Assembly (NCBI GenBank): GCA_902797885.1
Contig: CADBUP010000171.1
Span: 17,687 to 81,686 of the forward strand
From: an uncultured Ruminococcus sp.
Lineage (GTDB): Bacteria > Bacillota > Clostridia > Monoglobales > Monoglobaceae
Length of the DNA: 64,000 nucleotides
Direction of reading: 5' to 3'
The notes beneath the pieces were generated by a model. That model ran no database searches. It had not been told where the DNA came from and saw only the letters and a list, made by a program, of their open reading frames with translations. This document shows, in pieces, positions 2,268-50,534 of this stretch. The stretch's first letter is position 1. Every line of letters starts with the position of its first letter. The translations under genes were made by a program, and so were the position numbers.

Positions 2268-3175
2268 ATGATATACGTAACTGTAAAACAAAAAAGAAAT
2301 GACAAACAATTGAAATGGGAAGATTTTCTGTTTAACGAAGATCCTAAAATTCCAAAAATTCACTATGATGAAACCGGAACAATTACGCGAAAATTATTTG
2401 GCCCAAGCAAAGAGATGCTAAAGAGCGTAAATGTTCCGGGTATGATCGCTCTCTTGAAAGGATTTAACACGAAATATTCTTCTTTGTTTGAAAAGAACAA
2501 AGAAGAATTGTACGATCATTTCAAAATTCCAAAGAAAACAGGCGGGTTCAGGCCTATTGACGCGCCTAAGGACGAACTTCAAACAGCACTGAGAGAGCTT
2601 GTTTTTATTCTATCGGAAAAGTTTGGTCTTCTTTACCATACGGCCGCCTTTGCATATGTGAAGGGGCGCTGTATCACAGACGCGGTAAAGAAACACCAAA
2701 TCAATGAGAGCAATTGGATCCTGAAAACAGATTTCAGCGGCTTCTTTCCGTCCACTACATTGGATTTTGCCATGAGCATGATGTCTATGTTGTGGCCCGT
2801 AAGCGAGATATGCAAAACGAAGGCAGGCGAAGATGAATTAAGAAAAGCGCTAAGCCTTGGATTTCTTAACAATTCTTTGCCGCAAGGCACAGTTTTGTCT
2901 CCTATGCTTACAAATTTGATCATGATTCCCATAGATTACACATTATTCAACGAATTTGCTCATAGGAGATTCGTGTATACCAGATATGCGGATGACATTC
3001 ATATCAGCTGTGTTCAAAGCTTTGATATGGATGAAGTTGTTCAAATGATTAAAGAAGCGTTAGAAATCTTTCATGCGCCATACGAAATTAAGAAAGAAAA
3101 GACGCATTATGGATCCAGAAAAGGCAGAAATAAAATTCTTGGCCTGTCTTTGAATGCTGAAAATAACATAACGGT
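2268..3175 (+). CDS. reverse transcriptase, retron/Abi/DRT class, exon 1
   Basis: FRPIDAP; AAFAYVKGRCITDAVKKH...KTDFSGFFPS (retron-like NAxxH/FFxS region); LPQGTVLSPMLTNL; YTRYADDIHIS (YADD, nt 2984-2995); ILGLSLN (VTG-like region). The ORF runs into an intron. Confidence 0.8.
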
Positions 3176-4362
3176 TGGATAAAACGCTTGTCCCTTTAAA
3201 CTGAAAAGTTTATCGATAACATGGTGAACCTGTAAATGCAGGGTGTCTTAATTTATTAAGGCTAACGGGGAAATCTAAACAATATACATAACACTGAAAC
3301 TATGATATAATACCACCAAAGAAAGGTGGTGGCTTTATGCGCTATAAAGACTTGACTGGGCAAAGATTCTTTTGGTTAACAGTAATAAGAAAATTCGACG
3401 ATCCTAATAGTAAAGAAGTAAAGTGGTTGTGTAAATGTGATTGTGGAAACGAAGTCGTCGTAACTGCTGCAAATTTAAAATCTGGGAATACAAAATCATG
3501 TGGTTGTTATTACCGATCGGAAAGATTAAGAGCCAACATAATAGGCAAACAATTTGGTTTTTTGACAGCAATAAAAAGAATAAACTCCAAAGATGTTTTA
3601 TGCAAATGTTTGTGTGGAAATGAAATAGTTGTTTCATATTCAAATTTAACAAGCGGGAACACGAGATCGTGTGGATGTGCGCTTGTAAGATTTATATTGA
3701 ACGATAAATTAACAAACTTGACAGGAAGAATATTTGGAGAATTATTAGTAATTGCTAGATACGGTGATATGAAAGGTAATAGAAACCCAAAATGGCTTTG
3801 TCGTTGCTCTTGCGGAAGATATACTATAGTAGATGGAGAAAAACTAAAGAGTGGACACACGCAATCATGCGGTTGCATGAAAAACAGTTTGCCAGAATCT
3901 ATTATTGTTAATTATCTAAGATCGCACAACGTATCCTATGAAAAAGAATATAAATTCAAAGATTTAAGAAGTGAAAAAGGATATCCACTAAGATTTGATT
4001 TTAAAATTAATACAGAAAACAGTTTTTTCTTATTGGAGTATCAAGGACAACAACACTACTTAAATCACGACGACTTTGGAAAGCAGCAAAGAGAAGTTAC
4101 TGATAAGCAAAAGAAAGATTATTGTATGAAAAATAATATCGAATTAATTGAAATAAAATACGATGAAGAGATAGTTTCAGTTCTGGAAAAAATATTAATT
4201 GAACATTGTATATTGCATGACAATCCCGTGCCAAGCTCTGACCAAGAGAAGGTGTAACGACTATCCCGCGAGGGAGTAGCTTCTACGTGAAACTCGTAGT
4301 CGCGAAGCGCCATGCATCCTAATATGGATGATGATATAGTCTAGCTTTATGGAAACATAAAG
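3176..4362 (+). mobile_element. group I intron (family 1) interrupting the RT gene
   Basis: GGTGAACC (3223-3230), GCTAACGGGGAAATCTAAAC (3261-3280), CCCGTGCCAAG (4224-4234), GAAGGTGTAACGACTATCC (4248-4266) and GATATAGTC (4333-4341, P7 3' strand). The same blocks recur in five other loci. Boundaries are accurate to a few nt. Confidence 0.75.
3337..4257 (+). CDS. intron-encoded homing endonuclease: 3 tandem CxCxCG...SCGC zinc modules + Vsr/DUF559-like PD-(D/E)XK domain
   Basis: AAAGGTGGTG RBS. Three ~50-aa repeats (e.g. WLCKCDCGNEVVVTAANLKSGNTKSCGC). C-terminal LRFDF...LLEYQGQQHY...TDKQKKDYC...IELIEIKY. Confidence 0.75.
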   Translation: MRYKDLTGQRFFWLTVIRKFDDPNSKEVKWLCKCDCGNEVVVTAANLKSGNTKSCGCYYRSERLRANIIGKQFGFLTAIKRINSKDVLCKCLCGNEIVVSYSNLTSGNTRSCGCALVRFILNDKLTNLTGRIFGELLVIARYGDMKGNRNPKWLCRCSCGRYTIVDGEKLKSGHTQSCGCMKNSLPESIIVNYLRSHNVSYEKEYKFKDLRSEKGYPLRFDFKINTENSFFLLEYQGQQHYLNHDDFGKQQREVTDKQKKDYCMKNNIELIEIKYDEEIVSVLEKILIEHCILHDNPVPSSDQEKV

Positions 4363-4594
4363 ACCCACTGGGCGGGAAAAGAAGTACTGGAAAAGTGCCA
4401 CAAACAACCTGATCATGGACTATAAGAACGGCAAGATTTGGGATGTTGACGACATCCGACACTACGAAGGGTTGCTTTCGTATTACAAAATGGTTGAACC
4501 GGATTGTTTTGATCAGCTGGTGAAACACTATGAAGAGAAGTATCACGTTAGTTTAAAGAAGATCATCAAATATTCTTTGAATAACGGCTGGTAA
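4363..4594 (+). CDS. reverse transcriptase, exon 2 (inferred)
   Basis: Open frame from 4361 to TAA 4592-4594 (PTGREKKYW...LEGLLSYYKMVEPDCFDQLVKHY). Joining 3175|4363 keeps the frame (GT+A=Val), giving 379 aa in total. Confidence 0.55.
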
Positions 4595-5954: not shown

Positions 5955-6025
5955 GCAGCCGTAATGTAATGGCAACATATTTGCCTTCCAAGCAAAATTT
6001 GCGGGTTCGAATCCCGTCGGCTGCT
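5955..6025 (+). tRNA. tRNA-Gly (anticodon UCC); CCA follows at 6026-6028
   Basis: Hand-folded cloverleaf: acceptor GCAGCCG/CGGCTGC, D stem ATGT/ACAT, anticodon stem TTTGC/GCAAA with loop CTTCCAA, T arm GCGGG-TTCGAAT-CCCGT. Confidence 0.85.
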
Positions 6026-6028
6026 CCA

Positions 6029-6667
6029 AGGGAAAACGTGCGCTAAAATCTTCAAAGTGACCCTGCAAACGGTAAAAGAAGATTGACTGATAGGAAAGAC
6101 TATCGTTTTGCTGTGGCGGAATAGACAACCATAATCAAACCAATGCGCTTGGATTGGGAAGTTGGCAAGCAAATTATACAAGTTGCTTGTAGTAGACGCT
6201 TAAAACGTAAGGCTTGTCGCCGGTAAGCCCTTTGTGGAGCCGTGGCCGCAGTACTGCTATGTGTGGTGGAAATCCACACCGGCAAAACAATAGACCTGCC
6301 AGCGCCTCTGCTTAGCACGCGTACCTTGGGGGCACCGCATAACCGAACGCGGTATATAAGATTATGTAACTACGGTTGTTAGTGTTACTGCGCAGAGATG
6401 AAAGCTAACGTAAAAATTCTCAGCGCGTTTAACTTTGGTAAGGGCCCCGCACGCTGAGACAAGTGACGCGAACCATGCTGGGACTTTTATATGGTCTTTT
6501 GATATCTTCGGATTGAGAAAGTATGAAAACGGACGTGTCCATAAAAAAAGAAAGCCCAAATTTAAAGCCTGTAATAATCCTAGGTATATTACCAGCTTCT
6601 CACAACAGTCCAGTTCATATCGGCTTTCGGATAACCAACCATTTCGGATTGCATTGTGAGAACTTAT
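6029..6667 (+). ncRNA. candidate large structured ncRNA between two tRNAs (ROOL/GOLLD-class is a hypothesis only)
   Basis: About 640 nt with only short mutually overlapping ORFs on both strands. Visibly more GC-rich than its surroundings. Hairpins at 6166-6189, 6209-6232, 6261-6279 and 6390-6427. Flanked directly by tRNA-Gly and tRNA-Pro. Confidence 0.3.
6256..6280 (+). repeat. 25-nt exact repeat GCTATGTGTGGTGGAAATCCACACC, copy B
   Basis: Identical to 5099-5123. Part of a larger shared module (6113-6280 versus 4916-5123). Confidence 0.9.
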
Positions 6668-6740
6668 CTGGGTGTAGCGCAGTTGGCAGCGTGCCTGATT
6701 TGGGATCAGGAGGCCGCCGGTTCAAATCCGGCCACTCAGA
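6668..6740 (+). tRNA. tRNA-Pro (anticodon UGG)
   Basis: Acceptor CTGGGTG/CACTCAG (one G-U), anticodon stem CCTGA/TCAGG with loop TTTGGGA, T arm GCCGG-TTCAAAT-CCGGC. Confidence 0.85.
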
Positions 6741-6766
6741 TTAACAAAAAAAGGAGACAGATATCT

Positions 6767-7255
6767 ATGCCGTTGGAAGATAAATATTATTACATTGTCA
6801 GAAAACTGATCGAAGAAAAGAAAACGATTTCCACTATGGAAAGCTGCACCGGCGGATTCATTGCCTCTATGATTACCGATATTCCAGCCGCTTCAGAAGT
6901 AATAAAAGGCGCATTTGTAACATACAGTAATGAAGCTAAAATCAAACAAGGTGTACCTGAATGGATAATTAAATCGCGTGGTGTGTACTCAAATGAAACA
7001 GCATATATGATGGCCTACGCTTGTGCAAGACAGTATAACTCAAACGTTGGAATTGGTATCACGGGATGCTTCGGTAGCATAGATCCGCAAAATAAAGACG
7101 GCGTTCCTGGCGTTGTGGATATCGCAATTGTAGACGGAATTTACTCTGATTCGTGGACAAAAACGTTCGGCCCGTTTGGTTCTCGGCATGATTATAAAAT
7201 TGCCGTAGCTGATTTCGTAGCAGATAAACTAATGGAAATCCTGGAGATCGCCTGA
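6767..7255 (+). CDS. pncC: CinA C-terminal-domain / nicotinamide-mononucleotide deamidase-like protein
   Basis: AAGGAG RBS. ISTMESCTGGFIASMITDIPAASEVIKGAFVTYSNEAK matches the ESCTGG...G.V.YSN signature of the CinA/PncC family. The upstream in-frame extension overlaps tRNA-Pro and is rejected. Confidence 0.7.
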   Translation: MPLEDKYYYIVRKLIEEKKTISTMESCTGGFIASMITDIPAASEVIKGAFVTYSNEAKIKQGVPEWIIKSRGVYSNETAYMMAYACARQYNSNVGIGITGCFGSIDPQNKDGVPGVVDIAIVDGIYSDSWTKTFGPFGSRHDYKIAVADFVADKLMEILEIA

Positions 7256-7270
7256 CGGTCTCCCCTATCT

Positions 7271-7343
7271 GCGCCTGTAGCCAAGAGGATAAGGCCGCGC
7301 TCTTCTAAAGCGCTATTCGCGGGTTCGATCCCTGCCAGGCGCG
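7271..7343 (+). tRNA. tRNA-Arg (anticodon UCU)
   Basis: Acceptor GCGCCTG/CAGGCGC, anticodon stem GCGCT/AGCGC with loop CTTCTAA, T arm GCGGG-TTCGATC-CCTGC. Confidence 0.85.
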
Positions 7344-7370
7344 TTTTATTTCGCTATAAGGAGAAGTATT

Positions 7371-7776: not shown

Positions 7777-8100
7777 ATGGAAATAAAAACTGAGTTAGTC
7801 CCAAGATATAAAGTTGGAGATCGAGTCAAAATCCGGTCAGTTCCAACGATACGACATCTATGTGCGACAACAGGTTTACTTGCTGGCTGGGGCTCACCAA
7901 TGGAGGAATTTTGCGGTAAAAGTTATGTTATTTCATCCATTGAACTATCCAATAGAAAAAATTTCTTTAAATATAAATTTCTTAAAATGCCAGAATCTAT
8001 GCAAATGTGGACGTGGTCAGAAGATATGTTCGATTTGGACGTTTCTCAGGAAGAGATAGAAAAACAGGAAAACGAGTTTCTGGAATTGATCGGTTTCTGA
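7777..8100 (+). CDS. hypothetical protein
   Basis: AAGGAG RBS. 107-aa ORF. Confidence 0.6.
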   Translation: MEIKTELVPRYKVGDRVKIRSVPTIRHLCATTGLLAGWGSPMEEFCGKSYVISSIELSNRKNFFKYKFLKMPESMQMWTWSEDMFDLDVSQEEIEKQENEFLELIGF

Positions 8101-11090: not shown

Positions 11091-11213
11091 ACAAACATTT
11101 TGTTCATACGTAGAAAAAGGGGGGGGCTCTTAATCTTGCGACCGATAGGTTATGCTTGTTAACGACCGGTCTAAGTAACTGCACAAGCTGTAGAATCTGA
11201 AAAGGAGATAGGA

Positions 11214-11752
11214 ATGAGCGACAAATCATATCTTAAGAATCAAATCAGATTGGTATCCCTGAACGCGAACGATCTGTTTACAGATCAGGAACACGAAGTC
11301 TTCATGGATGTATGTGATCTTGTCCATGAACTGGAGAAAATGGACGCGGATGAAAACGCAGATCAGCTCCTGAAGAAAGAGTTAATAGCAAAGAGAAAAG
11401 AAAAATCTGCGCTGTTAACCGCCCTAATTAAGCAACATGCTGGCATTCCAAGAAAAGTAAGACTAAAGTCAGTCCTCATCCAGAATAAGGATCAGCCGCT
11501 CCCGACTGCAGCCACATGGAAGAATCTCAAATTCTCAAAGAAGATTTGTGAATTTGAGTCTGAAATGAGCCGTGCTATGGGGCTGCACCATCTAGACTAT
11601 ACGTTTGATAAAATTATCATTAAGTGGAAAAATATTGATCTCATGGAACAAATTGTTAAGGACGGATTCACTTTTGATATTTTAAAAGACGACGGCACTG
11701 TTGAAACGAAGAAGTTTCAGTACCTTACAAGTTCAGCTGGTCAAATTGGCCT
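11214..11752 (+). CDS. YonO-like single-subunit (two-barrel) RNA polymerase, exon 1
   Basis: AAGGAG RBS. The ORF ends inside intron landmarks. Part of a four-exon gene whose exons sum in frame to 959 aa. Confidence 0.6.
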
Positions 11753-12065
11753 GTAAGTCCCTTTCTGCCTCATCAGCAGGGTCACATACTTGTGGCTAAC
11801 GGAGAAAGCTAAACACATTCAATATCTAAATTACAACATTCTGTTATATGAAATCAGATATGACGAGAACGCGATTCGACGTCTTGATGAAATATTGAAT
11901 GTGCACGCTAATTCCGTGGGAACGGCTTCGGCTGAGCCTGTATCGACTATCTCCGCATCGGGAGAGTAAGGCTGTTATTGATACACAGTCTGAAATGGGC
12001 TTCTGCAAAATTTGCAGTAAGATATAGTCAGAGCCATATGAAAATATGGATAACTCGCAATTAAG
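11753..12065 (+). mobile_element. group I intron (family 1), endonuclease-less, with decayed HE remnant
   Basis: GCTAACGGAGAAAGCTAAAC, CGACTATCTCC, GATATAGTCA and GAAA-tetraloop hairpin CCATATGAAAATATGG. 11841-11918 translates LLYEIRYDENAIRRLDEILNVHANSV, the C-terminal tail of the family-1 endonuclease. Boundaries are approximate. Confidence 0.65.
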
Positions 12066-12171
12066 AACTTCTAAAATTTCATGTATATCAGAAGAAATGT
12101 GGCAGAAAATCCATGATCGTATCATGTGCGGTCTAACGTTTGAAAAGATCAACGCAAAAGGCGGGTGCAAT
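12066..12171 (+). CDS. YonO-like RNA polymerase, exon 2 (106-nt micro-exon, inferred)
   Basis: Open frame TSKISCISEEMWQKIHDRIMCGLTFEKINAKGGCN between two introns. The 3' end could instead be 12177. Confidence 0.45.
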
Positions 12172-12472
12172 GTGAATTGATTTTAGTTCCTTTGCGCAGT
12201 AATGTGCATAGCAAATGTGGTGAACCTACACATGTAGGGTGTCCAGACTGATGGGCTAACGGTAAAAATCTAAAACAAAAGCCCGTCGGTCTGGGCGCTT
12301 GTCATGACAATACCGTGCCAAGTCCAACCATGTCGGTTGGGAAGGTGTAGAGACTATTCCGTAAGGAAGTACACAGCCGGTGAAAATCCAGCGTGGAAGC
12401 GCCACACGACCTGTAAAGGCCGATGAGATAGTCCACTCCCTGTGAAATACTGCGAAAGCAGGGGTATAAAGG
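12172..12472 (+). mobile_element. group I intron (family 1), ORF-less
   Basis: GGTGAACCTACACATGTAGGGTGTCC, GCTAACGGTAAAAATCTAAAAC, CCGTGCCAAG, GAAGGTGTAGAGACTATTCC, GAGATAGTCC and CTGCGAAAGCAG tetraloop hairpin. About 300 nt. Confidence 0.7.
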
Positions 12473-13882
12473 AAACTGCTTGCCTATATTGCGTTGTCAA
12501 ATTCTGCCACTGATCCTTGGGACGACTTTGATATTGACCGTGTCATTGTTGTTCCAGACTGGGAAGCACCAGTAACTGGTGATATGCTGTACATAAAGCC
12601 AGATTACACAACAGAACGCGGTATCCGCACCGTTATGATCAAGCATACAGACGGTTGCGGAATGATGCTTCCTTCTGTATCTGACAAGAATTTTATGATT
12701 CGTGGACCGTTTGTTAAAGGATTACTCTCAGTGTTCGATTACATAAAATTTTGTAAAGAACATGGGGTTAAGCCAGAAATTGAAGATATTTACGGTGTTG
12801 TTCACGACTTGGAAAAAGAAAGAATTAATATCATTCTTTTTAAATCCATGTTTAAAATGAGCCACTACTTTGATTCCTGGAACTCGTACAAAGAATCCTT
12901 TAAGAAATACGGCTGCCACTTTGGGAAAACGAATTACGAAGAAGACTATTTGCCGGACAAGCAAATGAATTACCAGTTCACGCAAGCGGTGAATATGACT
13001 GATGAAGAAATCAGTAAATACACCGAGAAAGCACACAAGCGGCTGGAGAACCTCGCGAAGAATAAAACCTCCATGCTGCAAATGCTGAAAGCTTCTTCTA
13101 CTTCTCCTAATCCCTATTGTCGCGCTCTAATGATATATCCTGAATTGCTTAGAGATTACTACTCTCGTCAGCAATTGAAGGATATAAAGAAGAAAATGCT
13201 GTACGACGCAAAGTCCGGCGCAATCAAGTGCGAAAATAAGCGGTTGTTTGTCATCCCGGATTTATATGCTGCGTCAGAATACTATTTTCTTCATAAAGAG
13301 CGGCCTGACGGCCTTCTGAAAAATGGCGAAATCGCCTGCCGGCCGTACCGCACTCGCGGCAAAGCGGACGTCCTTCGCTCACCGTCGCTTTATATGGAAC
13401 ATAGTATAAATACTATTGTTGCTGATCCTAAAGTGTACGAATGGTTTACAACCGACGCAGTTGTGACCAGCTGCCATTCAATGATAAGTCGTATTCTGCA
13501 ATTCGATGTCGATGGAGATCAACTTAATGTGGTGGTTGATCCAGTAATTGTAAACGCAGCCGAAAGAAATCTGAAAGAACACGACATTGTCCCTTTGTTC
13601 TATGACGCGGCGAAAGCTAAAGATGAAATTGTCAATAAGGATTCAATATTCAACGGCCTGAAAAGAGCGCATGAATATTCAAATATTGGCGAGATCAGCA
13701 ATATGCTTACGTGTCTGTGGAATAGAAACAAGCCGGATATTGAAGCAGCTGCATTGCTTACTGCTCTCAATAATTGGCGCATAGATGGAGCAAAGACCGG
13801 ACTTGTTTATGAATACGCAAGTTATCCTCAAGTAACTAAACGTATAAATAAAGCTACAGGGGGATCTCACGCAAAGATGCCT
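12473..13882 (+). CDS. YonO-like RNA polymerase, exon 3 (catalytic DxDGD)
   Basis: ILQFDVDGDQLNVVVDP matches the Mg-binding NADFDGDQ motif of the multisubunit RNAP beta-prime barrel and of YonO/QDE-1-type enzymes. Confidence 0.7.
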
Positions 13883-15338
13883 TAACGAATAGGGCCGCAT
13901 ATTGGTAACAGTATGTGATAACGTGGTGAACCTGCAAACGCAGGGTGTCGCAGAAATGCGGCTAACGGGGAAAACTAAACGCAATTATTTTACTTAACTT
14001 TATACAGAAAGGTGGTGATAATATGAGCCATGCAAAATATTATAACGGAAAAACCATTAAAGAATGGTCTGCTGTTTGTGGGATCGAAGCAAAAACAATC
14101 AAAAACCGACTTAAAGAAGGTTGGTCTATTGACCATGCGATTTCTGTTCCGCTCGGTGAAAAGCGCGTTGCGACAATATCTCTATCAAAAATAGCTGCAG
14201 AAAATAAAATGTCGTTTAGTACATTGAAAAACAGGATCAACAAAGGAATGACAATTGAAGAAGCGATTAAATACGATCCGCGAAAAGATATGATAGGATA
14301 TAGATCAGGACGGCTTGTCGTAGAAAAAGAAATTGAACCAAAACGTGATCCATCTGGGAGACCAAGAAGACAGTTTTTATGTTTGTGCGATTGCGGAAAT
14401 GAAACAACAGCTCTTGCCGAAGTACTTATTTCTGGGAACAAGCGATCTTGCGGTTGTCTCGGAAAAGAAATAACATCTAAAAGACAAGAGAAAAATCTAA
14501 TTGGACAAACATTTGGAAGATGGTATATAGAAAGCGAAGCTTTTCGCGACAATCAAGGTATTCATTGGAACGCAGTGTGTTCTTGCGGAAATAAAGGCAC
14601 TCCAACAACAAGCAACTTATTAAAGGGAGTGAGCACGTCTTGTGGGTGTTACAATAAAGAACAAACCTCATTGCGTGAAAGAAAAGATTTAACAAATCAA
14701 AAGTTCTTTATGCTGACAGCGATTGAATACATTGGAATCGATGAATACAATAATTGTCTTTGGCGATGCAAATGCGATTGCGGAAATGAAATTGTGACGA
14801 CAGCCGGAAGATTGCTTGGAGGACAAATCATTTCATGTGGATGCCTTAGATCAAAATATGAACGTATGATTGAAGATGTTCTTATCTCGAAAAATATTTT
14901 CTTTAAAAAAGAAAAATATTTCAAAGATTTAAAACATATCAATTATTTGTTTTTTGATTTTTGCATCATAGATCATGATAACAACATTCATTTGATAGAA
15001 TATCAGGGCAAGCAGCACTATGTTGACTGTGGGGAATTTGGTAGATTGCAACGAGAGATAACAGATCAAATGAAAAAAGATTATTGTTCGAAAAACAATA
15101 TTCCATTATATGAAATTCGCTACGATAGCAATGTCGAAGATGAATTAAATAAGATAATTGCGCATGTCAATCCCGTGCTAAACTCTGAATTATCAGAGGA
15201 AGTGTAACGACTATCCCGTAAGGGAGTAACTACTACGTGAAATTCGTAGTTGTGAAGTGCCACGCAGACAAAGGATAGCTTTGCCTGAAGATATAGTCTA
15301 TTCCCCTAATAAATATCGGGAAACCGAGGGTACTATAG
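13883..15338 (+). mobile_element. group I intron (family 1) with homing-endonuclease ORF
   Basis: GGTGAACCTGCAAACGCAGGGTGTC, GCTAACGGGGAAAACTAAAC, GTGTAACGACTATCCC, GATATAGTCTA and TCGGGAAACCGA hairpin. Joining 13882|15339 is in phase 0. Confidence 0.75.
14023..15207 (+). CDS. intron-encoded homing endonuclease: 2 HTH-like repeats + 3 CxCxCG...SCGC modules + PD-(D/E)XK domain
   Basis: AAAGGTGGTG RBS. Contains LCLCDCGNE...SCGC, VCSCGNK...SCGC, WRCKCDCGNE...SCGC and FFDF...LIEYQGKQHY...IPLYEIRY. Confidence 0.75.
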   Translation: MSHAKYYNGKTIKEWSAVCGIEAKTIKNRLKEGWSIDHAISVPLGEKRVATISLSKIAAENKMSFSTLKNRINKGMTIEEAIKYDPRKDMIGYRSGRLVVEKEIEPKRDPSGRPRRQFLCLCDCGNETTALAEVLISGNKRSCGCLGKEITSKRQEKNLIGQTFGRWYIESEAFRDNQGIHWNAVCSCGNKGTPTTSNLLKGVSTSCGCYNKEQTSLRERKDLTNQKFFMLTAIEYIGIDEYNNCLWRCKCDCGNEIVTTAGRLLGGQIISCGCLRSKYERMIEDVLISKNIFFKKEKYFKDLKHINYLFFDFCIIDHDNNIHLIEYQGKQHYVDCGEFGRLQREITDQMKKDYCSKNNIPLYEIRYDSNVEDELNKIIAHVNPVLNSELSEEV

Positions 15339-16163
15339 TATTTCTTTCAATACAGTAAAAACGGCCGCTCATCAGGAAAGCCAAAGGAAAGCTACGCGAA
15401 GCCTACCAAATCAACCATGAACAGGATCTGTGCCGCATTCGATGATATCGGCAACATCAATCTGAATTTTGCAGGAGTGCCGCCGTTTAATTATCAGATG
15501 CTGCTTTCAGAGCCGTTCTATGACAAAAACACGGAACTAGTTCAAACATTCTGCGATTTAGACAGCATGTCTATCTCAACAGAAATAGCTCTGTCTGAAA
15601 TTCCGCCGCATGAAAGAAACTCTACTGGAATGTATGAAATTTTGGCAGACGTCATCAAAGAAACGCTAACGGAGCAATTTGGATCTATGGAATATTGTTA
15701 TCCAATACTCGTAAAAGCGCTTTTTGCTGGCGATAATTGGAAAAAAGCCTCGCATAAAAAGATGTTCTGGCGAATCTTTGGTGAAATTGCACTGCAAAAC
15801 ATAGAAAATAATCTTAAAGACCATACAGTGTGTCCTGATTGCGATGCAAAAATTCCCAAATGGGCCAAAGATCATACATGCCCAAAGAACACTTTAGGCT
15901 TCTACGTGTGCGAAGATTGCGGAAAGCAATGTGTCAGAATTAACTCAAGGCAGGTGCGATGTGAAGAATGCCAAAAAGCGCACAGGGAGGAATCCAACAA
16001 ACTTGCGCATACGAAAATGCGAGAACGTAAAAAGGTGTGTGAGAAACGGTGTATTTCTTTCTTGCGATCACGCTCGATGGCAACGTCAGAGACGGAACCT
16101 TCTGGCCAGCCTATGTTCTTTGTAAATCATGGACAACAAGCGAAAAGCGATCAGGATGGATAA
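15339..16163 (+). CDS. YonO-like RNA polymerase, exon 4 (C-terminal Zn-ribbon region)
   Basis: In-frame TAG at 15336-15338 marks the upstream limit of the open frame. CPDCDAK...CPKN...CEDCGKQC...CEECQ cysteine pairs. Confidence 0.6.
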   Translation, partial: YFFQYSKNGRSSGKPKESYAKPTKSTMNRICAAFDDIGNINLNFAGVPPFNYQMLLSEPFYDKNTELVQTFCDLDSMSISTEIALSEIPPHERNSTGMYEILADVIKETLTEQFGSMEYCYPILVKALFAGDNWKKASHKKMFWRIFGEIALQNIENNLKDHTVCPDCDAKIPKWAKDHTCPKNTLGFYVCEDCGKQCVRINSRQVRCEECQKAHREESNKLAHTKMRERKKVCEKRCISFLRSRSMATSETEPSGQPMFFVNHGQQAKSDQDG

Positions 16164-18191: not shown

Positions 18192-19801
18192 ATGGATAGT
18201 ATTGCTTCTGCGGTTATTGAATTGGCTAATAAGCACTTTGGAGAATATCGTATCAGGAATGGACAAGTGGTTCCTAAGTATTGTCCGTTCTGCCACGGCG
18301 GACAAAATGGAGATAAGGAAACATTTTCTGTTGGTATGTATAATGGAGCTTTTTCATGTATGCGCGGAAACTGTACTGGCATTTCTGGCGACGGCAAAGG
18401 AACAGAAGGCTCTTTCCAACAGCTATCTAATTATTTCGGAGAATCTGGATTTCAATTTTCCAGTTTGCCGAAAACAATTGGTCTTTCCAAGAAAAAGACT
18501 TATGAACTTCCTGATCCAAACGAACTTCAGCCGCTGACAGACGACATTGTTAATTACATGGGAACTCGTAGCATCTCTCGTCAAACCTTGGATGATTGGG
18601 AAATCGCTTCTGATAAAGACGGGAATATTGTGTTTCCGTTTTACCGGAACGAGAAACTTATTTATGTGAAATATCGCAAGCCTAAGAAGCACACAAAAGA
18701 AGACGGTCCCAAAGAGTGGGCAAAATCCAACACGGAACCGATCCTCTTTGGTATGGATATGGTTTCCTTTAATAAGCCGCTGTGCATCACTGAAGGTGAA
18801 ATTGATTGCCTGTCGCTGTACGAAGCTGGAATTTCCAACGTAGTGTCTGTACCTTCCGGCTGTAACAATATGGAATGGGTCACACTTTGTTGGGATTGGC
18901 TGGAAAACTTTCAACAGATTATTCTGTTTGGAGATTCCGATGAGCCTGGAATGGAAATGTCTTCCACGCTTATGAAGCGACTGGGTGAAGATCGCTGCAT
19001 GATCCCCAAGGAATATCCTGAATGTGTTTATAATGGGCATAATTACAATAGAATCTGTAAGGATGCTAACGAAATTCTGTGCTGTTATGGCCCTGACAAT
19101 TTAAAGACGTTGGTAGAAGCTTGCGAACCTGCGCCGATTAAAGGCGTTCTTCAGGTTTCACAAATTCCATACGTAGATCCAAGAAGCGTTCCAAGAATTA
19201 TGACAGGAATACATACTCTTGATAACATGATTGGTGGGTTCGGAGAATGCGGAATCACGGTAATAAGTGGCATGCGTGGCGAGGGTAAAAGTACGATTAG
19301 TTCTCGCTTTCTTCTTGAGGCAATCGAACAAAATTATAAGTGCTGTGCTTATAGCGCTGAACTTCCTAAAAATCAATTTCTTGATTGGACATTTCTTCCT
19401 GCGACTGAAAGTAAATATGTTACCTATGTAACAGATCCAAGAAACGGAAAAAGAATTCCTCAGGTTCCATTGGAAATCCAGAAAAGAATAAGGAACTGGC
19501 TTGGAGATAGACTGTGGTTGTTTGATAATGGGGCAATTTTTGATGATGATCAACAAACTGCAGTTTTAAAAGTATTTGAAATGTGCGCAAGAAGATATGG
19601 TTGCAAACTTTTCCTGGTAGATAACCTCATGATGCTTCTTACGACTGGAGAAGAAGAAAATGCAGCACAAGGTAGATTTATGGCAAAGCTTAAAGCATTT
19701 GCAAACAAATATAAAGTACATGTTCTTTGTGTGTGCCATCCACGAAAGAAGCCAGCTAACGCTACTTTCTCCAACGATGATGTAGCGGGAAATTCAGTGA
19801 T
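18192..19801 (+). CDS. bifunctional DNA primase-helicase, exon 1
   Basis: Zn finger CPFCHGG...CMRGNC. TOPRIM ITEGEIDCLS...LFGDSDEPG. Walker A GMRGEGKST. Walker B LFLVDNLM. Confidence 0.8.
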
Positions 19802-21063
19802 TAAATTTAGTCACCTCGGCAAGTAATTGTTGAGAAAAATGTGGTGAACCTATACATATAGGGTGTTCCATTTTTGGAGCTAACGGTAAAAATCTAAGTG
19901 ATGTGTTTAAATATATAATGAAAAGGAGGTGAAAGAATGAAACGAGCAGACTTAACTGGACAGACATTCGGGTGGTTAACCGTAGACCATTTTGAAAAAA
20001 TAATAACAGTTGGAAAAAATACAAAAAGAACTTTGTGGTCCTGTACATGTAAGTGCGGAAACACTGCATTTGCAACAACACAGGATTTAAGACAAGGTAA
20101 AGTGGTCTCATGCGGTTGCAAAAAAGCATATAACGCTAAAGATAGAATTATAGACGAAACAGGTAAAATTCATGGATTTCTTCGAGTGAAAGAAAAAGCC
20201 GGATCAGACGAGAATAGAAGAGTTTTATATCGTTGTGAATGTTTGTTGTGTGGAAAAGAGACTATTGTTTCAGGAAAGGCCTTACGTAGAGGCACAACTA
20301 AATCTTGTGGTTGTTTAAAAGTTGAAAATCGAAAGACTTTAGGAAAGAGAACCTTTAAGGATTTAACAGGCAAAACAATAGGGTATCTCTATGTCGAAAG
20401 CAGAGCAGAAAATAAATATTCTCAAGCAGGAAATCAATCAACAATGTGGAATTGCAAATGCCTCCTTTGTGGCGGGAAAACCGTTGTTGCTGGTACTGCA
20501 TTGTGGAATGGTCATACAAGATCTTGTGGATGTCTTCATATGTCATACGCAGAAAAAGACATAAACGATGAATTAATTAAGCTTAAAATTAATTTTTATC
20601 ACGATTATTCTTTCGACGATTTAATCAGCCCTTATTCAACCATGCCTTTACGTTTTGATTTTGCTCTTTTAGATGATTGGGGTTTAGTATTAGCTCTTTT
20701 AGAATATCAAGGAATTCAACACTTTCAAAAATTCAAAGATGGCTTTGGAGATATGCAAAGAGAAATCACAGATCCCATAAAAAAGGAGTATTGTAGAAAC
20801 AATAGCATTCCATTATATGAAATTCGATACAATGAAGAAATTATTCCGGCTCTACATAAAATTCTTTCAATGGTATATAACACATCATATGACAATACCG
20901 TGCCAAGCGAGCAGGAAACTGCTTGAAGGTGTAACGACTATTCCGTAAGGAAGTAGTTTGCAGGCGAAAATCCTGCTTACGAAGTGCCACACTCCTATTC
21001 TCAATAGGATGAAGAGATAGTCTACTCCCCTTGTTAAATATCGGGAAACCGAGGGTATTAAGG
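19802..21063 (+). mobile_element. group I intron (family 1) with homing-endonuclease ORF
   Basis: GGTGAACCTATACATATAGGGTGTTCC, GCTAACGGTAAAAATCTAAG, GGTGTAACGACTATTCC, GAGATAGTCTA and TCGGGAAACCGA. Joining 19801|21064 gives AT+A=Ile and ...AGNSVI|TNIATTVFSLEK. Confidence 0.75.
19937..20926 (+). CDS. intron-encoded homing endonuclease: 3 CxCxCG...SCGC modules + PD-(D/E)XK domain
   Basis: AAGGAGGTG RBS. Contains WSCTCKCGN...SCGC, YRCECLLCGK...SCGC, WNCKCLLCGG...SCGC and LRFDF...LLEYQGIQHF...IPLYEIRY. Confidence 0.75.
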   Translation: MKRADLTGQTFGWLTVDHFEKIITVGKNTKRTLWSCTCKCGNTAFATTQDLRQGKVVSCGCKKAYNAKDRIIDETGKIHGFLRVKEKAGSDENRRVLYRCECLLCGKETIVSGKALRRGTTKSCGCLKVENRKTLGKRTFKDLTGKTIGYLYVESRAENKYSQAGNQSTMWNCKCLLCGGKTVVAGTALWNGHTRSCGCLHMSYAEKDINDELIKLKINFYHDYSFDDLISPYSTMPLRFDFALLDDWGLVLALLEYQGIQHFQKFKDGFGDMQREITDPIKKEYCRNNSIPLYEIRYNEEIIPALHKILSMVYNTSYDNTVPSEQETA

Positions 21064-21313
21064 AACAAATATCGCAACTACAGTATTCAGCTTGGAAAAA
21101 CCTTCAATTCGTGTAACTAAGAATCGAGATTATGGTGAAACAGGCTTTATTCCATGCGACTACGATCCTGTGAATCATAGAATCTTTGAAACTAAATTTG
21201 GTGATAGGGCTGTTTATGGGTGGGATCATACTGGAATTGAAATTCCTGAAGATCAGGCTTGCGCTCTGCCAGAATTTCAGCTTCAATCCAACCGTCAGGA
21301 TCAGCCGTTCTAA
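21064..21313 (+). CDS. primase-helicase, exon 2
   Basis: The frame opens just after the intron 3' hairpin. IRVTKNRDYGETG is the DnaB/gp4-type motif H4 (KNR..G). Confidence 0.65.
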
Positions 21314-24511: not shown

Positions 24512-26230
24512 TTGCTTGAGTACGAGGGGTATCACATTCACACTTGTTACAGTAATGCCCTAACTCAGCCGGATTCTACTGTGTTCATCAAGGATTACGC
24601 GAAAGCTTACCGAGAACGCGGGCATAAGGTATTGTGCATCTCAGAGCATGGAAATCGATCCAATGTGTGGGAGCAATTCGATATATGCGAAGCGTATAAG
24701 AACGATAAAGACAGTCCTTATGTAATGACGCCGATTGCGGCGGCTGAAGCATATTTTGTTCCAGACAGGCTAAAAGAAGTTGACGGAAAGAAAGACGGCA
24801 GAAACTTTCATTTGATTCTTGTAGCGAAAGACATGGAAGGTTTCTACGAATTAAACGAAGCGTTGTCGGAAGCCAATCTGACAGGTTTCTACAGTAAAGC
24901 CAGAGTGGATTTCGATATTCTGTCTAAGCTGGATTATAAACATTTTATATGCACAACCGCATGTGTAAGTGGCATATTAAAGGATGAAAGCTGCGAGCAG
25001 CTGGCTTGTCAGTTACATGAAATATTTAGAGAGAATTTCTATCTGGAAGTACAGCATCATCCACAAAGAATCCAGGCTGAAACAAATATCAAGGCTCTTC
25101 GGTTATATAAGAAATATAATTGGCCGCTGATCTACGGAACAGACAGTCACTATATTAACAAGGAAGACAAAATTCTGAGAACGGAGTTAATGAAGTCTGC
25201 AAATATAACATATGGCGATGAAGATTCGTTCGATCTTCATTTACCAACGGCGGCTGAAGCGTTCAAACTATTCCAAACTCAGGGCGTGCTGTCTAAAGCT
25301 CAGATCGAAGAAGCTATGGAAAACACTCTAATTTTGAGAGATTTTGAAGGCATACACTTTACAAAAGAAAAGAAGATTCCAAATTCTTATCCAGGAGTAC
25401 CAATAGAAAAAAGAAATTATCTATACAAGAAAACAGTTTGCGACGAATATATTAAGAAGGCAGGTATGCCAAATAAAGAAGAAGCAGCTGAGATTCATGC
25501 GGAAATGGACACGATAGCCGATACAGGTACGGCTGATTATTTCCTTATCATGAAGCGAATCATTGATAAGGGAATTGAATATGGTGGAGTATTAACTACA
25601 ACCGGTCGTGGATCAGGCGCATCGTTCGCAACTAACTACGCTATGGGATTTTCATCGATAAATAGATTACACTGCGCTGTAAAAATGTATCCTGAGCGTT
25701 TTATATCAGCTGATCGTTTGGCTAATGGGCTTCCAGATCTGGATTGCAACATGGCAAATGTATCTGCTTTCGAAAAGGCTGGAAAAGAAATATTAGGCGA
25801 ATATGGATGCCTTCCGATGATTGCGTTTGGAACCGTAAAAACACTATCAGCATTTAAATTGTTGGCCAGGGCCAGAGATTTGGACTTTGACACATCCAAC
25901 GCTGTGTCAAAACAAATTCAGAATTACGAACAAGACGTAAAATACGCCAAAGAAAACAACAGCGATGATCCTGATTATGATGTTGACGATGAAGTGCAAA
26001 TTGAGAATTATATTGACGATCAATACATAAAACTTGTTGAAGATTCAAAGCAGTATAAAGGAATTATAATAAGCACTTCTCCGCATCCCTGCGCTCATCT
26101 TTTATTAGATAAGGATATTCGAAGAGAGATTGGCGTTATTCGTGTCAAATCAAAATCTGGAAACAAGGACGCTGTATATGCCGCATTTATTGACGGAAAG
26201 ACGGCAGATAACTACAACTACTTAAAAGCT
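24512..26230 (+). CDS. DNA polymerase III alpha (DnaE)-like replicative polymerase, exon 1 (PHP + palm)
   Basis: N-terminal PHP signature YHIHTCYSN...ISEHGN. The ORF runs into intron landmarks. Confidence 0.75.
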
Positions 26231-27655
26231 AGATATTTGGCCTTTTCTATGGTAACATAGAATTGAAACATGGTGAACATATAAATATATGGTGTTGGGA
26301 TAAAACCCAGCTAACGGCAGAAAGCTAAATGCGAATAGATCAACAACGAAGAAAGAAGGTGAATAAATGCCAGCGAAAAAGAATTTAATTGGCCAAACAT
26401 TTGGGTGGTTAACTGTAATTAAAGAAGCTGAACCACTTATCTTGGCGAGCGGAAAATCAAGAACACAATGTGTTTGTTTGTGCAAATGTGGAAAGGAAAC
26501 AATCGTATCCTCTCAGTCCCTTATACAAGGCACAACAATTTCTTGTGGCTGTTTTGGTGCTATCGCAAGAACAGAAGGAAAAAGAAAAGCCGTGGAAAAC
26601 AAAATGCTCGATAAGCATTTTGGTCGCTGGCACGTTGACAGTTACGCTGGACAAAAATATTTACCTTCTGGTCAAACTCGTAGCTTATGGAATTGTACAT
26701 GTGAATGCGGAACACGCAGAACATTAACTACAAATCAATTAAATGAAGGAAGTTTAAGCTGTGGATGTTTACGTAGCGAACTCGCATCTGCTAGAGAAAC
26801 AATAAATTTAATTGGTATGCGTTTCGATTCTTTAGTGGTGTTAGAAAGAATTGGTTCAAAACATTATGGAAAACAAAAATTATCCATGCCACTATGGAAA
26901 TGCAAATGCGACTGCGGAAAAGAATGCATTGCAACATCTAGAGCTTTAATTGAAGGCAGAAAAAAATCATGTGGATGTCAACGCAGATTAAACTTAGAAG
27001 GTTTACGATTTGGATTGCTTGTAGTTATAAAATACGATGAAACAAAGAAAAAATGGCTTTGTAAATGCGACTGTGGAAACCTTACATATAAAGCTGCAGG
27101 GCATCTTCGAGCTGGCAGTGCAATTAGTTGCGGTTGTCAAGCAATGTCAAAAAATGAGATAATCATAAATGACTATCTCATGAATAAAGGAGTTAAATTT
27201 GCAAATCAATATTCTTTTAAAAAACTAAAAGGGCCTAATGGCGGGCAATTGAGATTTGACTTTGCAATTTTGAATGAAGATAATTTTCCAGTCGCGTTAA
27301 TAGAGTATCAAGGGCAGCAACATTTCGAAGAAATAGAAGGATACGAATATTTCGGAAAAACGGCTCGCGATATAACGGATTTCATTAAAAGGTTGTTCTG
27401 CGATCAAACACATATAGATCTATACACAATAAGCTACAATCAAAACGTAATTGAAGAATGCGATAAAATTCTTTCACAAATAAAATTCGCACATGCCAAT
27501 GCCGTGCCAAGCTCGAAAGAGAAGGTGTAACGACTATCCCATAAGGGAGTAGAACTCAGTGAAACTCTGCGTTCGAAGCGCCATGCAACCGGTTTTACGG
27601 TTGAAGAAATAGTCTAAACCCCTAATAAATATCGGGAAACCGAGGGTATTCATTG
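26231..27655 (+). mobile_element. group I intron (family 1) with homing-endonuclease ORF
   Basis: GGTGAACATATAAATATATGGTGTTGGG, GCTAACGGCAGAAAGCTAAATG, GGTGTAACGACTATCCC, AAATAGTCTA and TCGGGAAACCGA. Joining 26230|27656 gives ...YNYLKA|DFLRVDVV, matching the DnaE LKxDFLGL box. The two exons total 1161 aa. Confidence 0.75.
26367..27530 (+). CDS. intron-encoded homing endonuclease: 4 CxCxCG...SCGC modules + PD-(D/E)XK domain
   Basis: GAAGGTG RBS. Four repeats (CVCLCKCGKE, WNCTCECGTR, WKCKCDCGKE, WLCKCDCGNL, each ending SCGC). LRFDF...LIEYQGQQHF. Confidence 0.75.
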   Translation: MPAKKNLIGQTFGWLTVIKEAEPLILASGKSRTQCVCLCKCGKETIVSSQSLIQGTTISCGCFGAIARTEGKRKAVENKMLDKHFGRWHVDSYAGQKYLPSGQTRSLWNCTCECGTRRTLTTNQLNEGSLSCGCLRSELASARETINLIGMRFDSLVVLERIGSKHYGKQKLSMPLWKCKCDCGKECIATSRALIEGRKKSCGCQRRLNLEGLRFGLLVVIKYDETKKKWLCKCDCGNLTYKAAGHLRAGSAISCGCQAMSKNEIIINDYLMNKGVKFANQYSFKKLKGPNGGQLRFDFAILNEDNFPVALIEYQGQQHFEEIEGYEYFGKTARDITDFIKRLFCDQTHIDLYTISYNQNVIEECDKILSQIKFAHANAVPSSKEKV

Positions 27656-29422
27656 GATTTTCTAAGAGTAGATGTAGTTAAAATAATTTCTGAAACATTC
27701 AAACTAATTGGAAGACCAGTTATGACTGTTTCAGAATTAGACGAGGCCGTCAAAAACGACGACGAGGTTTGGAATCTTTACAAAAATGGAATAACATTTG
27801 GATTGAATCAGGTTGAAAAGGAAAAGTCGTCTAAGCGCTGTATGATATATAAACCGCACAGTGTGCCGGAGTTGTCTGCGCTGGTTGCAGCAATCCGCCC
27901 AGGTTTCAAATCGATGCTTGATACGTTCATCAACAGGAATCATTTTGAGTATAACATTCCGTCGCTTGACAATTTATTGAAGACAGAATATATACCTGAA
28001 TCGTTCCTAATGTATGATGAACAAATTCTGCAAATTCTAAAAGCAGCCGGAATACCTGGTCCTGATGCGTATGCATGCACAAAGGCGATTAAGAAGAAAA
28101 AGGCAGATAAAGTTGCGTCATTTAAAGAACGTTTTAAATCTGGATTCGGAAAGATGCTTCAAGAAAAAGAACACGCATCAAAAGAAAAAGCAGACGAAAC
28201 CGTGGAAGAAATATGGAGAATTATAAATGACGCTGCGTCGTATATGTTTTGCAGTGCTCACAGTGTTAGCATGGCCTATGATAGCTTATACTGCGCCTGG
28301 TTAAAAGCTCATTACCCATATGAGCTTTACGTCACAATGCTGAAACTCTACGACGAAAAGAAGAATACGGACAAAATCTCAGCTATTATTTCAGAAATGA
28401 AACGTTATAAAGGTATTCGTCTTCTTCCTGGCAGATTCGGGCAGGACAATAGAGATTGGCTGGTAGATAAAGAACATGCCACGATCTCTCAAAGCATATC
28501 CAGCATCCGGTATATCAGCAAAGAAGCGGCTGAGGTTCTCTATCAGATAGGGCTTAACGACGAAGCTGTTATGGGAACCATCTATAAACCAGCCGTTCTT
28601 AAAGATTCTGTCAAGAAAGATATTGCCGCAATCAAAAAGAAGCTAAAACAGCTCAAAGAACGGTATGACAAAGAAGCTCCGTCGGACCTATCAAAAGAAG
28701 AGTTGTTTCGCTTTACGGAAGAAAAGGAAGGAATTGCTCAGGCTGGTGCGGAAATGGAAGAGCTTTTGCGCAATATTGAGTTAAGTCCAGATTCCTATGA
28801 AACTCAAGCCGAAGAAATTGATGTAATAGCAAAGCTGGATTGCTTCACGAATGTTCTTCGGGCAATTCAAATGAACGCTAACGTCAACACCAGAATGATT
28901 GAAGTGTTAATTGGAATAGGGTACTTCAGCCGTTATGGTAAAACAGAAAAGCTTATGAAAGTCTTTAATGAGTTCTTCGAGGGAAAACAAAAGTTAACAA
29001 AGACAATCAAAAGTTTTCAGGAGCGGCTGGAATATATGCGGAACTATGAAGCTTCGCTGCCAGATGAAGACCTTCCGATCGGCTTACGCCTACAAAAGGA
29101 ATTTGATAACATCGGTCTCTGCCTTACCGCGTTTCCCAGCGCTCCTTCCAACCTATATTTCGTCGAAAGTGTTGATGATAAGTATAGTGTTCGAGCTAAG
29201 CTTTACAGCGTTCAGCGCGGAACAATAGGTACAATCAGAATTACAAAGAAACAACAGGAAATTATGCCGTTAAAAGAAGGAAATTTGATTGTTATGGAGA
29301 AATATAATATGCGTCAAAGATGTTCCTATAAAGACGGCAAGAGGATTCCTATTCCAGGCGAGAAAGATTGTTGGGTTACTAATTATTCTATTATATACGA
29401 GAATCAACTTTCCGCAGCATAG
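27656..29422 (+). CDS. DnaE-like polymerase, exon 2
   Basis: DFLRVDVV...AAIRPG...MFCSAHSVSMAYDSLYCAWLKAHYP matches the fingers/HhH region pattern of pol III alpha. Confidence 0.7.
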   Translation, partial: DFLRVDVVKIISETFKLIGRPVMTVSELDEAVKNDDEVWNLYKNGITFGLNQVEKEKSSKRCMIYKPHSVPELSALVAAIRPGFKSMLDTFINRNHFEYNIPSLDNLLKTEYIPESFLMYDEQILQILKAAGIPGPDAYACTKAIKKKKADKVASFKERFKSGFGKMLQEKEHASKEKADETVEEIWRIINDAASYMFCSAHSVSMAYDSLYCAWLKAHYPYELYVTMLKLYDEKKNTDKISAIISEMKRYKGIRLLPGRFGQDNRDWLVDKEHATISQSISSIRYISKEAAEVLYQIGLNDEAVMGTIYKPAVLKDSVKKDIAAIKKKLKQLKERYDKEAPSDLSKEELFRFTEEKEGIAQAGAEMEELLRNIELSPDSYETQAEEIDVIAKLDCFTNVLRAIQMNANVNTRMIEVLIGIGYFSRYGKTEKLMKVFNEFFEGKQKLTKTIKSFQERLEYMRNYEASLPDEDLPIGLRLQKEFDNIGLCLTAFPSAPSNLYFVESVDDKYSVRAKLYSVQRGTIGTIRITKKQQEIMPLKEGNLIVMEKYNMRQRCSYKDGKRIPIPGEKDCWVTNYSIIYENQLSAA

Positions 29423-48577: not shown

Positions 48578-48609
48578 AAATCGTACTCCTTAAAAATAAA
48601 AACGGTACA

Positions 48610-48750: not shown

Positions 48751-48782
48751 GGTTTGCTCCTTATATACTGTTTTTATGGTTT

Positions 48783-49390: not shown

Positions 49391-49403
49391 TTTTCATTCC
49401 TCC

Positions 49404-50489: not shown

Positions 50490-50534
50490 TTATCGCACCC
50501 CCTTTTTTAATTTATTAAATTCGTAACAATATAA

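Follow-up and report, generated by a model that had tools for sequence, protein, structure and literature searches.

Positions 11214-16163 (+ strand) of the window, that is, of the whole 64,000-nucleotide (nt) stretch of DNA analyzed here from an uncultured Ruminococcus sp., very probably form a single gene, which encodes a 960-amino-acid (aa) RNA polymerase of the YonO family and is interrupted by three phase-0, phage IA2-like group I introns. A first-pass annotation of this DNA had proposed a YonO-like single-subunit, two-barrel RNA polymerase assembled from four open segments on the + strand. The four segments are present, and joined as proposed they give a 959-aa frame. The identity of the product is borne out by full-length homology to YonO, a predicted QDE-1/RDR2-like fold and the retained DVDGD motif. 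The proposed exon map was exact at junction 3, while junctions 1 and 2 were misplaced by 6-11 nt, and the corrected join gives 960 aa instead of 959.

The polymerase and its corrected exon map

A sequence search with the earlier 959-aa join returned 775 proteins at E ≤ 1e-3, many of them at E = 0, and the join is therefore not a chance pattern. The best 120 of the 775 matches are mostly contiguous proteins of about 900-990 aa with 47-66% identity, which cover 83-100% of the query, nearly all of them 94-100%. Because hundreds of contiguous homologous proteins of about 940 aa cover 94-100% of the joined product and span all the segments, the segments are parts of one gene, and the reservation made earlier, that homologues might show them to be separate genes, was not borne out. 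The Pfam family PF05183 is precomputed on many full-length homologues; on exon 3 alone, the match to this family (RdRP) is marginal, at 24.2 bits (E 1.7e-5; the cut-off is 23.8).

The comparison with YonO that had been suggested shows that the SPbeta protein is a direct full-length homologue. In the tblastn search of phage records, yonO of SPBc2 (SPbeta) is 33.5% identical over aa 4-881 (91% of the length, E 3e-115), the genes of Goe12 and Goe13, annotated as "yonO: DNA-directed RNA polymerase", match at E 1e-115, and Psychrobacillus phage Perkons matches at E 2e-137. The SPBc2 gene matches as one uninterrupted piece, whereas the window gene contains three introns, and this match stops within the Cys/His tail (aa 851-897) of the window protein of about 960 aa, at aa 881. 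Experiments have shown YonO to be a DNA-dependent RNA polymerase; it transcribes the SPbeta late genes, and its Asp triad is essential (Forrest et al. 2017, PMC5467207). The window protein resembles it in being a single chain with the same Asp triad from a large temperate phage of Bacillota, and by this analogy the same role in late transcription is presumed. The clade of the window polymerase is known from metagenomes alone, where the best relative is 66% identical; the closest relative from a genome, an Acutalibacteraceae metagenome-assembled genome, is 54% identical. A sequence search of the PDB with the polymerase gave no meaningful match.

The Mg-chelating DxDGD box that had been noticed in exon 3 is found in QFDVDGDQLNVV, encoded at 13499-13534, with DVDGD itself at 13505-13519. 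As aa 561-565 of the product, this motif has D561, D563, G564 and D565 invariant in an alignment of 55 sequences, and every column invariant across the 54 homologues is kept in the window product. The multi-Cys C-terminal tail proposed at the same time is also real, with C851, C854, H865, C867, C877, C880, C894 and C897 invariant.

Structure prediction of the spliced product, another suggested check, gave a confident fold. The AlphaFold2 model built from the 55-sequence alignment has a mean predicted local distance difference test score (pLDDT) of 88.2 and a predicted template modeling score (pTM) of 0.81. In a Foldseek comparison with the PDB, plant RDR2 and Neurospora QDE-1 rank first, with a probability of 1.00 and E-values from 6e-19 to 2e-12 (single best entries, RDR2 7w82 at 6e-19 and QDE-1 2j7n at 4e-16), and these alignments extend over 718-956 columns, a span that includes all four exons. 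Bacterial beta-prime subunits match weakly (E 0.02-0.1), and the crAss-type RNA polymerases, with which a comparison had also been proposed, are absent from the 50 best structural matches. The comparison concerns the overall structure rather than individual residues of the barrels, and at this level the other reservation made earlier, that the spliced product might not fold into a double-psi beta-barrel pair, was not borne out either. QDE-1 and RDR2 (2j7n, 7w82) share with the window protein PF05183 and a two-barrel active site with DxDGD, with a TM score of about 0.44 over 830-950 aligned columns. They differ in being only 13-15% identical to it and in being eukaryotic silencing enzymes with a differing template preference and role.

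As corrected on the + strand, the gene begins with a Shine-Dalgarno sequence, AAGGAG, read from the sequence at 11202-11207 with 6 nt spacing to the ATG at 11214. Exon 1 (11214-11741, 528 nt, aa 1-176) ends in ...GCU GGU, a boundary taken from the alignment with intronless homologues, and is followed by intron 1 (11742-12057, 316 nt), which has lost its endonuclease gene. Exon 2 (12058-12177, 120 nt, aa 177-216) encodes QLRTSK...GGCNVN and precedes intron 2 (12178-12472, 295 nt), which has no open reading frame (ORF) and starts with an in-frame UGA. Exon 3 (12473-13882, 1410 nt, aa 217-686) carries the catalytic motif. Intron 3 (13883-15338, 1456 nt) starts with an in-frame UAA and contains an endonuclease ORF, and exon 4 (15339-16163, 825 nt including the stop codon, aa 687-960) encodes the conserved Cys/His cluster at 15831-15971.

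The need for correction appears in the alignment with 17 homologues, where junction 1 of the earlier map reads AGQIGLTSK against AGQLR(T/R)DK in the homologues, and junction 2 reads GGC--NK against GG-x-N-x-NK in most of them. Directly upstream of the earlier exon 2 lies CAATTAAGAACT, and directly downstream of it lies GTGAAT, so that the sequence itself supplies the boundary correction. The corrected junctions, in RNA letters GCUGGU|CAAUUAAG, GUGAAU|AAACUG and AUGCCU|UAUUUC, align without gaps in protein alignments with the 17 and then with 54 homologues. The corrected join restores Q177, L178, R179 and K217, all invariant in the 55-sequence alignment, and the boundaries of exon 2 restore the motif GGCNVN|K as well. 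Junction 3 (13882|15339), with the motif KMP|YFFQYSKNGR, is gapless against both homologue sets and against intronless DNA, and a covariance-model match described below ends at 15338. At the nucleotide level, the alignment with the uninterrupted gene of a related locus, L003, is gapless at all three corrected junctions, and this intronless allele reads ...CGCATGCCC|TTCTTC... at the site of intron 3. Exact-pattern scans of IMG/VR for the two window-unique junctions gave no match for one and two for the other, both chance matches in unrelated DNA. A megablast search of phage records with the locus found no related record, and only a conserved 60-nt intron 3' end was matched.

The three introns sit in the highly conserved peptide motifs AG|QLR, NVN|KLL and KMP|YFF. 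All are in phase 0, with U as the last base of every 5' exon and G as that of every intron (3' termini ...aacucg|, ...uaaagg| and ...cuauag|). Inteins are excluded because all three frames of each insertion hold stop codons, and the unspliced frame of exon 1 stops 13 nt into intron 1.

Group I introns and their endonuclease genes

Guide-sequence pairings can be drawn for each intron. For intron 3, P1 consists of GCCU/GGGC (4 bp, 9-nt loop) and P10, on the same guide, of UAUUU/GAAUA (5 bp), and for intron 2, P1 consists of GAAU/GUUC (4 bp, 8-nt loop). In intron 1, P1 consists of GGU/GCC (3 contiguous bp, 7-nt loop), where by reading C-G and G-U pairs continue past a U-U mismatch, and P10, again on the guide used by P1, consists of CAAUU/AAUUG (5 bp); the core of this intron reads CGACUA...GAUAUAGUC.

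The folded core was assessed by covariation in 12 introns, namely, introns 2 and 3 and ten introns from the same gene in other phages, with the ORFs removed. The 37 base pairs in eight helices (P3, a hairpin after P3, P4, the P7 pseudoknot strand pair, P7.1, P7.2, P9.0 and P9) are paired in 98.1% of cells, compared with 32-45% when the partner strand is slid, and 21 of the 37 pairs changed on both sides. For example, P7 goes from GACUA/UAGUC to GACCA/UGGUC in the introns of L045 and Goe11. In the shuffle control, none of 500 shuffles reached the observed values for four of the five measures.

R1, a covariance model covering the 3' half of the core, was built solely from the ten introns of other phages. 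This model matches intron 3 at 15198-15338 (116.4 bits, E 3.4e-20) and intron 2 at 12341-12472 (102.4 bits, E 1.6e-17), and in both cases the end of the match is the 3' splice site. Intron 1 is matched at 11934-12066 with 34.8 bits (E 1e-4); it shows 12 compensatory pairs relative to the intron at the same site in locus L031 and belongs to a slightly different subtype. The last 60 or so nt of intron 3 are 94-98% identical to stretches in 212 records of Staphylococcus, Listeria, Enterococcus and Bacillus phages, most of which lie in unannotated gaps and some in DNA-polymerase genes, and which are taken to be group I intron 3' ends. Distant blastn matches of introns 1 and 2 comprise core matches of 32-37 nt and, for intron 1, one match of 118 nt with 70% identity. 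Two other signals were set aside. RNAalifold applied to intron 1 and its L031 counterpart pairs the 5' end with the 3' strand of P7, which is regarded as an artefact because the method cannot draw the P3/P7 pseudoknot, and a 14-bit group II D1-D4 fragment at 12374-12409 (Rfam, E ≤ 10) is noise.

The ORF of intron 3 (14023-15207, + strand, 394 aa) resembles homing endonucleases. It matches PHROG 374, 559, 7140 and 9084 with E-values from 9e-47 to 1e-16, under the labels HNH, homing and intron-encoded endonuclease, and it is 40% identical (E 7e-73) to a 328-aa intron endonuclease of L031. Besides a nuclease-like domain at its C-terminus, the protein has three Cys-rich repeats (CxCxCG...SCGC). 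Its gene is placed in a peripheral loop of the ribozyme, between the two strands of an ACGGGG/UCCCGU helix, and its stop codon lies inside the conserved GUGUAAC segment just 5' of P7. The protein has no Pfam family at the cut-off (DUF2726, E 0.002), no NCBIfam match and no relative among PDB sequences, and an assignment as HNH or EDxHD/Vsr-like is unsupported by these three sources. Its AlphaFold2 model is of moderate confidence (pLDDT 74.6), and the fold matches are weak and local, of the PD-(D/E)xK type: VRR_NUC 4qbn (probability 0.99, TMt 0.68, E 0.1) and McrC (probability 0.93). Three paralogues occur in the window, adjoining DNA-polymerase, primase/helicase and reverse transcriptase (RT)-like ORFs. 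The four window endonucleases share the Cys-rich repeats and a C-terminal FDF...EYQGxQH...TD domain, and are 35-42% identical to the first. Homologous endonuclease ORFs are also found in introns at sites 176, 521 and 654 of the polymerase gene (L031, L033, L045, L027).

Intron 1 retains 33 codons, NILLYEIRYDENAIRRLDEILNVHANSVGTASA (11835-11933, + strand), which match the final 34 residues of the intact L031 endonuclease (328 aa) with 56% identity (E 6e-11). Because this remnant matches the C-terminus of the endonuclease from the same site, intron 1 is read as an endonuclease-deleted derivative of the same-site intron. All three introns are selfish homing elements, but they have reached different points in the life cycle of such elements, with an intact ORF in intron 3, a remnant in intron 1 and none in intron 2.

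Several observations weigh against the reading of one spliced gene. At junction 1, residues 175-178 of the model have pLDDT values below 50 despite the invariant motif, and P10 of intron 2 is absent or weak. Intron 1 is the weakest case, with its three contiguous base pairs in P1 and its low R1 score. Moreover, a 6-bp helix, UGGCCU (11747-11752)/GGGUCA (11779-11784), fits the 5' site of the earlier map; by reading of the L031 sequence this pairing is kept there, and it could compete with P1 of intron 1. The helix names are our own, and two extra covarying hairpins between P3 and P4 are unmatched to the published IA2 diagram. The Rfam model RF00028 (gathering score 50) gives only 23.2 bits for intron 3 (E 0.009) and no match for introns 1 and 2 at E ≤ 10; with gathering scores applied, the Rfam scan was empty across the gene. 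The same model at its gathering score called no introns in seven related loci, and Rfam at E ≤ 0.1 gave no intron match in Goe11 and BUCT083. Since RF00028 also misses the introns of relatives, its low or absent scores are attributed to the model, which would be of limited use for introns of this class, above all where ORFs are inserted. Finally, self-splicing with guanosine is an expectation drawn from the sequence of the introns, which counts against the reading as well.

It is very improbable that the gene is dead or dying. In that case at least one intron, likeliest the endonuclease-less intron 1, would no longer splice, and no full-length polymerase would be made. The loss of the endonuclease gene from intron 1, its weak P1 and its score of only 34.8 bits would fit such a state, as would the heavy load of seven introns in the window. 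However, the 2883 exon nt contain no frameshifts and no stops, and the columns invariant among the homologues are all kept. Where intron 1 differs from its L031 counterpart, compensatory changes preserve its helices, a pattern that implies selection for the RNA structure. In the homing cycle of Goddard and Burt, an intron that has lost its endonuclease gene but still has its ribozyme is reportedly an expected stage.

It is very improbable that the earlier exon map (11214-11752, 12066-12171, 12473-13882 and 15339-16163; 959 aa) is exact. That map is in frame and also obeys the U|...G rule, a 6-bp P1 (UGGCCU/GGGUCA) is possible at its 5' site of intron 1, and the end of the R1 alignment for that intron happens to coincide with its boundary at 12066. 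On the other hand, it replaces L178 and R179, invariant in the 54 homologues, adds one residue and deletes two residues that are present in homologues. It also leaves intron 1 without P10, and the P1 that can form at its 5' site of intron 2 is weaker (3 bp, 14-nt loop). The last helix and the terminal G are 8 nt apart in introns 2 and 3 and in several relatives, a spacing that intron 1 keeps only when it ends at 12057.

Separate genes for split subunits, as in the RNA polymerases of jumbo phages, where split beta and beta-prime genes exist, with nothing spliced, can hardly be credited: ORF callers would give four ORFs and GenBank names the split SPbeta-like genes yonO_1 and yonO_2. Against this, exons 2 (40 aa), 3 and 4 have neither a start codon nor a ribosome-binding site where the homology begins, and the ORFs as listed start at 12494 and 15417, which is 21 and 78 nt into homologous sequence. 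Structure, covariation and model score all identify the gaps as group I introns, and the junctions are nucleotide-exact against intronless genes.

Homing elements in YonO-type polymerase genes

The first-pass annotation had also suggested that the polymerase gene is a hotspot for intron homing, and a survey agrees with this suggestion, with about 8 insertion sites across relatives, about five of them additional to those of the window, and with yonO of SPbeta-like phages also split by introns. The survey is a sample of about 200 loci and not a census, and the insertion sites were assigned by reading the junctions. Among the IMG/VR loci encoding relatives of the polymerase, 10 of 80 are interrupted. 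The 80 loci from bacterial genomes are prophages (Lachnospiraceae, Oscillospiraceae, Paenibacillus, Bacillus and others), and only two of them are interrupted, both near aa 650-655.

The intron of L031 lies at aa 176/177, which is window site 1. Introns in L033 and L045 lie at aa 521/522 (LRSPH|L), and those in L027, L028, L029, L032 and L034 lie at aa 561/562, within the catalytic motif (FD|VDGD), with HNH ORFs. Three insertion sites fall within 8 nt at aa 652-655 (L023, L027, L030, L034), and the introns there carry an ORF of the GIY-YIG or Cys-repeat family, or no ORF. The window sites 216/217 and 686/687 were not seen elsewhere in the survey, nor was another locus with three introns. As a separate observation, the FD|VDGD introns are inserted between the D and V codons and encode an HNH protein of about 160 aa; their P1 is UUCGAU/GUCGAA (6 bp), and the 3' exon GUUG pairs with the first intron bases CAAC.

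In phi3T, SPR, Goe11, Goe14, BUCT083 and SPbetaL3-L7, yonO belongs to the same family and contains a group I intron of about 1.3 kb with the same 3' core and a homing endonuclease, and R1 scores 132 bits in L001 (Goe11) and 125.5 bits in L002. These genes, annotated as yonO_1 and yonO_2, differ from the window gene in having one intron, at NNFTID|FAKT (aa 654/655), a site that is empty in the window, and in their GIY-YIG endonuclease. No paper describing an intron in yonO was found in the literature searched, and the intron-split yonO in GenBank is apparently undescribed. Two RNA motifs were seen near the polymerase genes of relatives. The SR6 antitoxin RNA is found by Rfam upstream of yonO in Goe11 (L001 coordinates listed as 2080-2183 and 7833-7942), and a "skipping-rope" RNA motif lies near the polymerase gene of Goe11 (31 bits, below the threshold) and of L031 (49.7 bits, above it; 2424-2494). 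The latter motif was unreported by the gathering-score Rfam scan of the window, where no search aimed at it was made.

Phage genes with several introns have precedents. Twort orf142 contains three group I introns and shows exon skipping (Landthaler and Shub 1999, as cited in PMC11878797), and DNA polymerase and terminase genes of Bastillevirinae contain two or three introns (PMC11878797). These genes share with the window gene several IA-type introns per gene and endonuclease ORFs in some of them, and the exons can be small and the genomes are rich in introns in both cases. The host genes differ, being tail tube, DNA polymerase and terminase genes in Twort and Bastillevirinae, and the gene of the phage's own RNA polymerase in the window. 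A putative group I intron encoding the gp210 endonuclease lies in the RNA polymerase beta-subunit gene of PhiPA3 (Birkholz et al. 2024, PMC11620839), and gp210 interferes with the co-infecting relative PhiKZ (PMC11620839). As in the window, an endonuclease intron interrupts a phage RNA polymerase gene there, at a site just after conserved residues of the catalytic region. The PhiPA3 enzyme, however, is a multisubunit jumbo-phage polymerase with one intron and an HNH endonuclease, whereas the window enzyme is a single-chain YonO type with three introns and another nuclease family. Because multi-intron phage genes, a polymerase intron in PhiPA3 and split yonO genes are already known, the finding adds a member to known kinds. 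The novelty lies in the combination: a YonO-type gene of a clade known only from metagenomes contains three introns, two of which occupy sites where the survey found no other intron.

Other introns of the window and implications

The DNA polymerase gene (24512-29422, + strand) is also split, into an N-terminal part (24512-26260) and a C-terminal part (27653-29422) that match positions 42-600 and 596-1039 of PHROG 405. A 387-aa endonuclease paralogue (26367-27530) lies between them, and the strongest R1 match in the window (127 bits, 27521-27654) is found at this gene. A primase/helicase ORF (18192-19826, + strand) is followed by a group I 5' core, GUGAACC...GGAGCUAACGG, at about 19840-19890, by a 329-aa endonuclease paralogue (19937-20926) and by an R1 match of 120 bits (20925-21063). 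The region 18192-21300 thus looks like it holds another intron, with exon 2 starting near 21064. An RT-like ORF of the retron type (2268-3182, + strand) matches the NCBIfam retron St85 RT at E 1e-46 with 159.5 bits, below the cut-off of 235. Directly 3' of it lie a group I 5' core (3180-3280), a 306-aa endonuclease paralogue (3337-4257) and an R1 match of 91 bits (4248-4370); it would be unusual for a phage RT-like gene to have a group I intron at its 3' end. The only intron at the Rfam gathering score (RF00028, 71 bits, E 5e-16), at 57504-57923 on the - strand, is of another subtype than the six + strand introns and lies among genes without an assigned function in the tail/structural region. 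The density of seven group I introns in the 64-kb window compares with 17 R1 matches in the 1.05 Mb of 83 related loci.

The window also contains three tRNA genes (Gly-UCC, Pro-UGG and Arg-UCU; 5955-7344, + strand), a tyrosine-type integrase (44547-45683, + strand; PHROG 1, E 2e-69) and, on the opposite strand, endolysin and tail-fibre genes (46507-64000, - strand). This gene content suggests a large temperate tailed phage with the early and replication genes on one strand and the lysis and structural genes on the other.

The proposed course of expression is as follows. A pre-mRNA would be transcribed from the + strand early/replication cluster, in which the polymerase gene has single-stranded DNA-binding protein (SSB), primase/helicase and DNA polymerase genes as neighbours, and each intron would splice itself out with guanosine. 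An in-frame stop lies no more than 13 nt from each 5' splice site and would keep ribosomes off the ribozyme cores; phage introns usually exclude ribosomes from the ribozyme in this way. The ligated mRNA would be translated from AAGGAG/ATG at 11202/11214, and the polymerase may then transcribe the late phage genes as SPbeta YonO does. The idea of the first-pass annotation that three splicing events provide a built-in regulatory delay is speculation; a similar "on-switch" idea has been raised for the introns of Bastillevirinae, along with the idea of competition (PMC11878797). Since all introns are in phase 0 and exon 2 consists of 40 codons, exon skipping would keep the frame, and skipping of exon 2 could yield a second polymerase isoform.

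The finding leaves the knowledge of how group I introns or YonO work unchanged, and its consequences concern annotation and the ecology of the gene. Gene callers report the polymerase gene as four unrelated hypothetical ORFs and a nuclease, and GenBank likewise splits the gene of phi3T-like phages into yonO_1 and yonO_2. In view of this split annotation, YonO-type polymerases are probably undercounted in phage genomes. The corrected exon map also provides an expressible cDNA for a YonO clade that is known from metagenomes only.

As the survey shows, homing elements preferentially target the phage's own transcriptase. A tentative extension of this result, which we regard as possible but doubtful, is that the YonO-family gene is a recurrent battleground of homing elements, whose endonucleases may knock out the transcriptase of co-infecting intronless relatives. 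This extension, made by analogy with gp210 of PhiPA3, counts at least 8 distinct insertion sites in the most conserved motifs, one of which separates codons of the catalytic D|VDGD, and at least three endonuclease families, namely, HNH, GIY-YIG and the Cys-rich-repeat family with a PD-(D/E)xK-like domain. The preference seen in the survey agrees with a recent view in which phages compete by means of intron endonucleases, and the survey provides natural pairs of intron-plus and intron-minus alleles. If the endonucleases act as weapons, the three-intron phage would be immune at three target sites.

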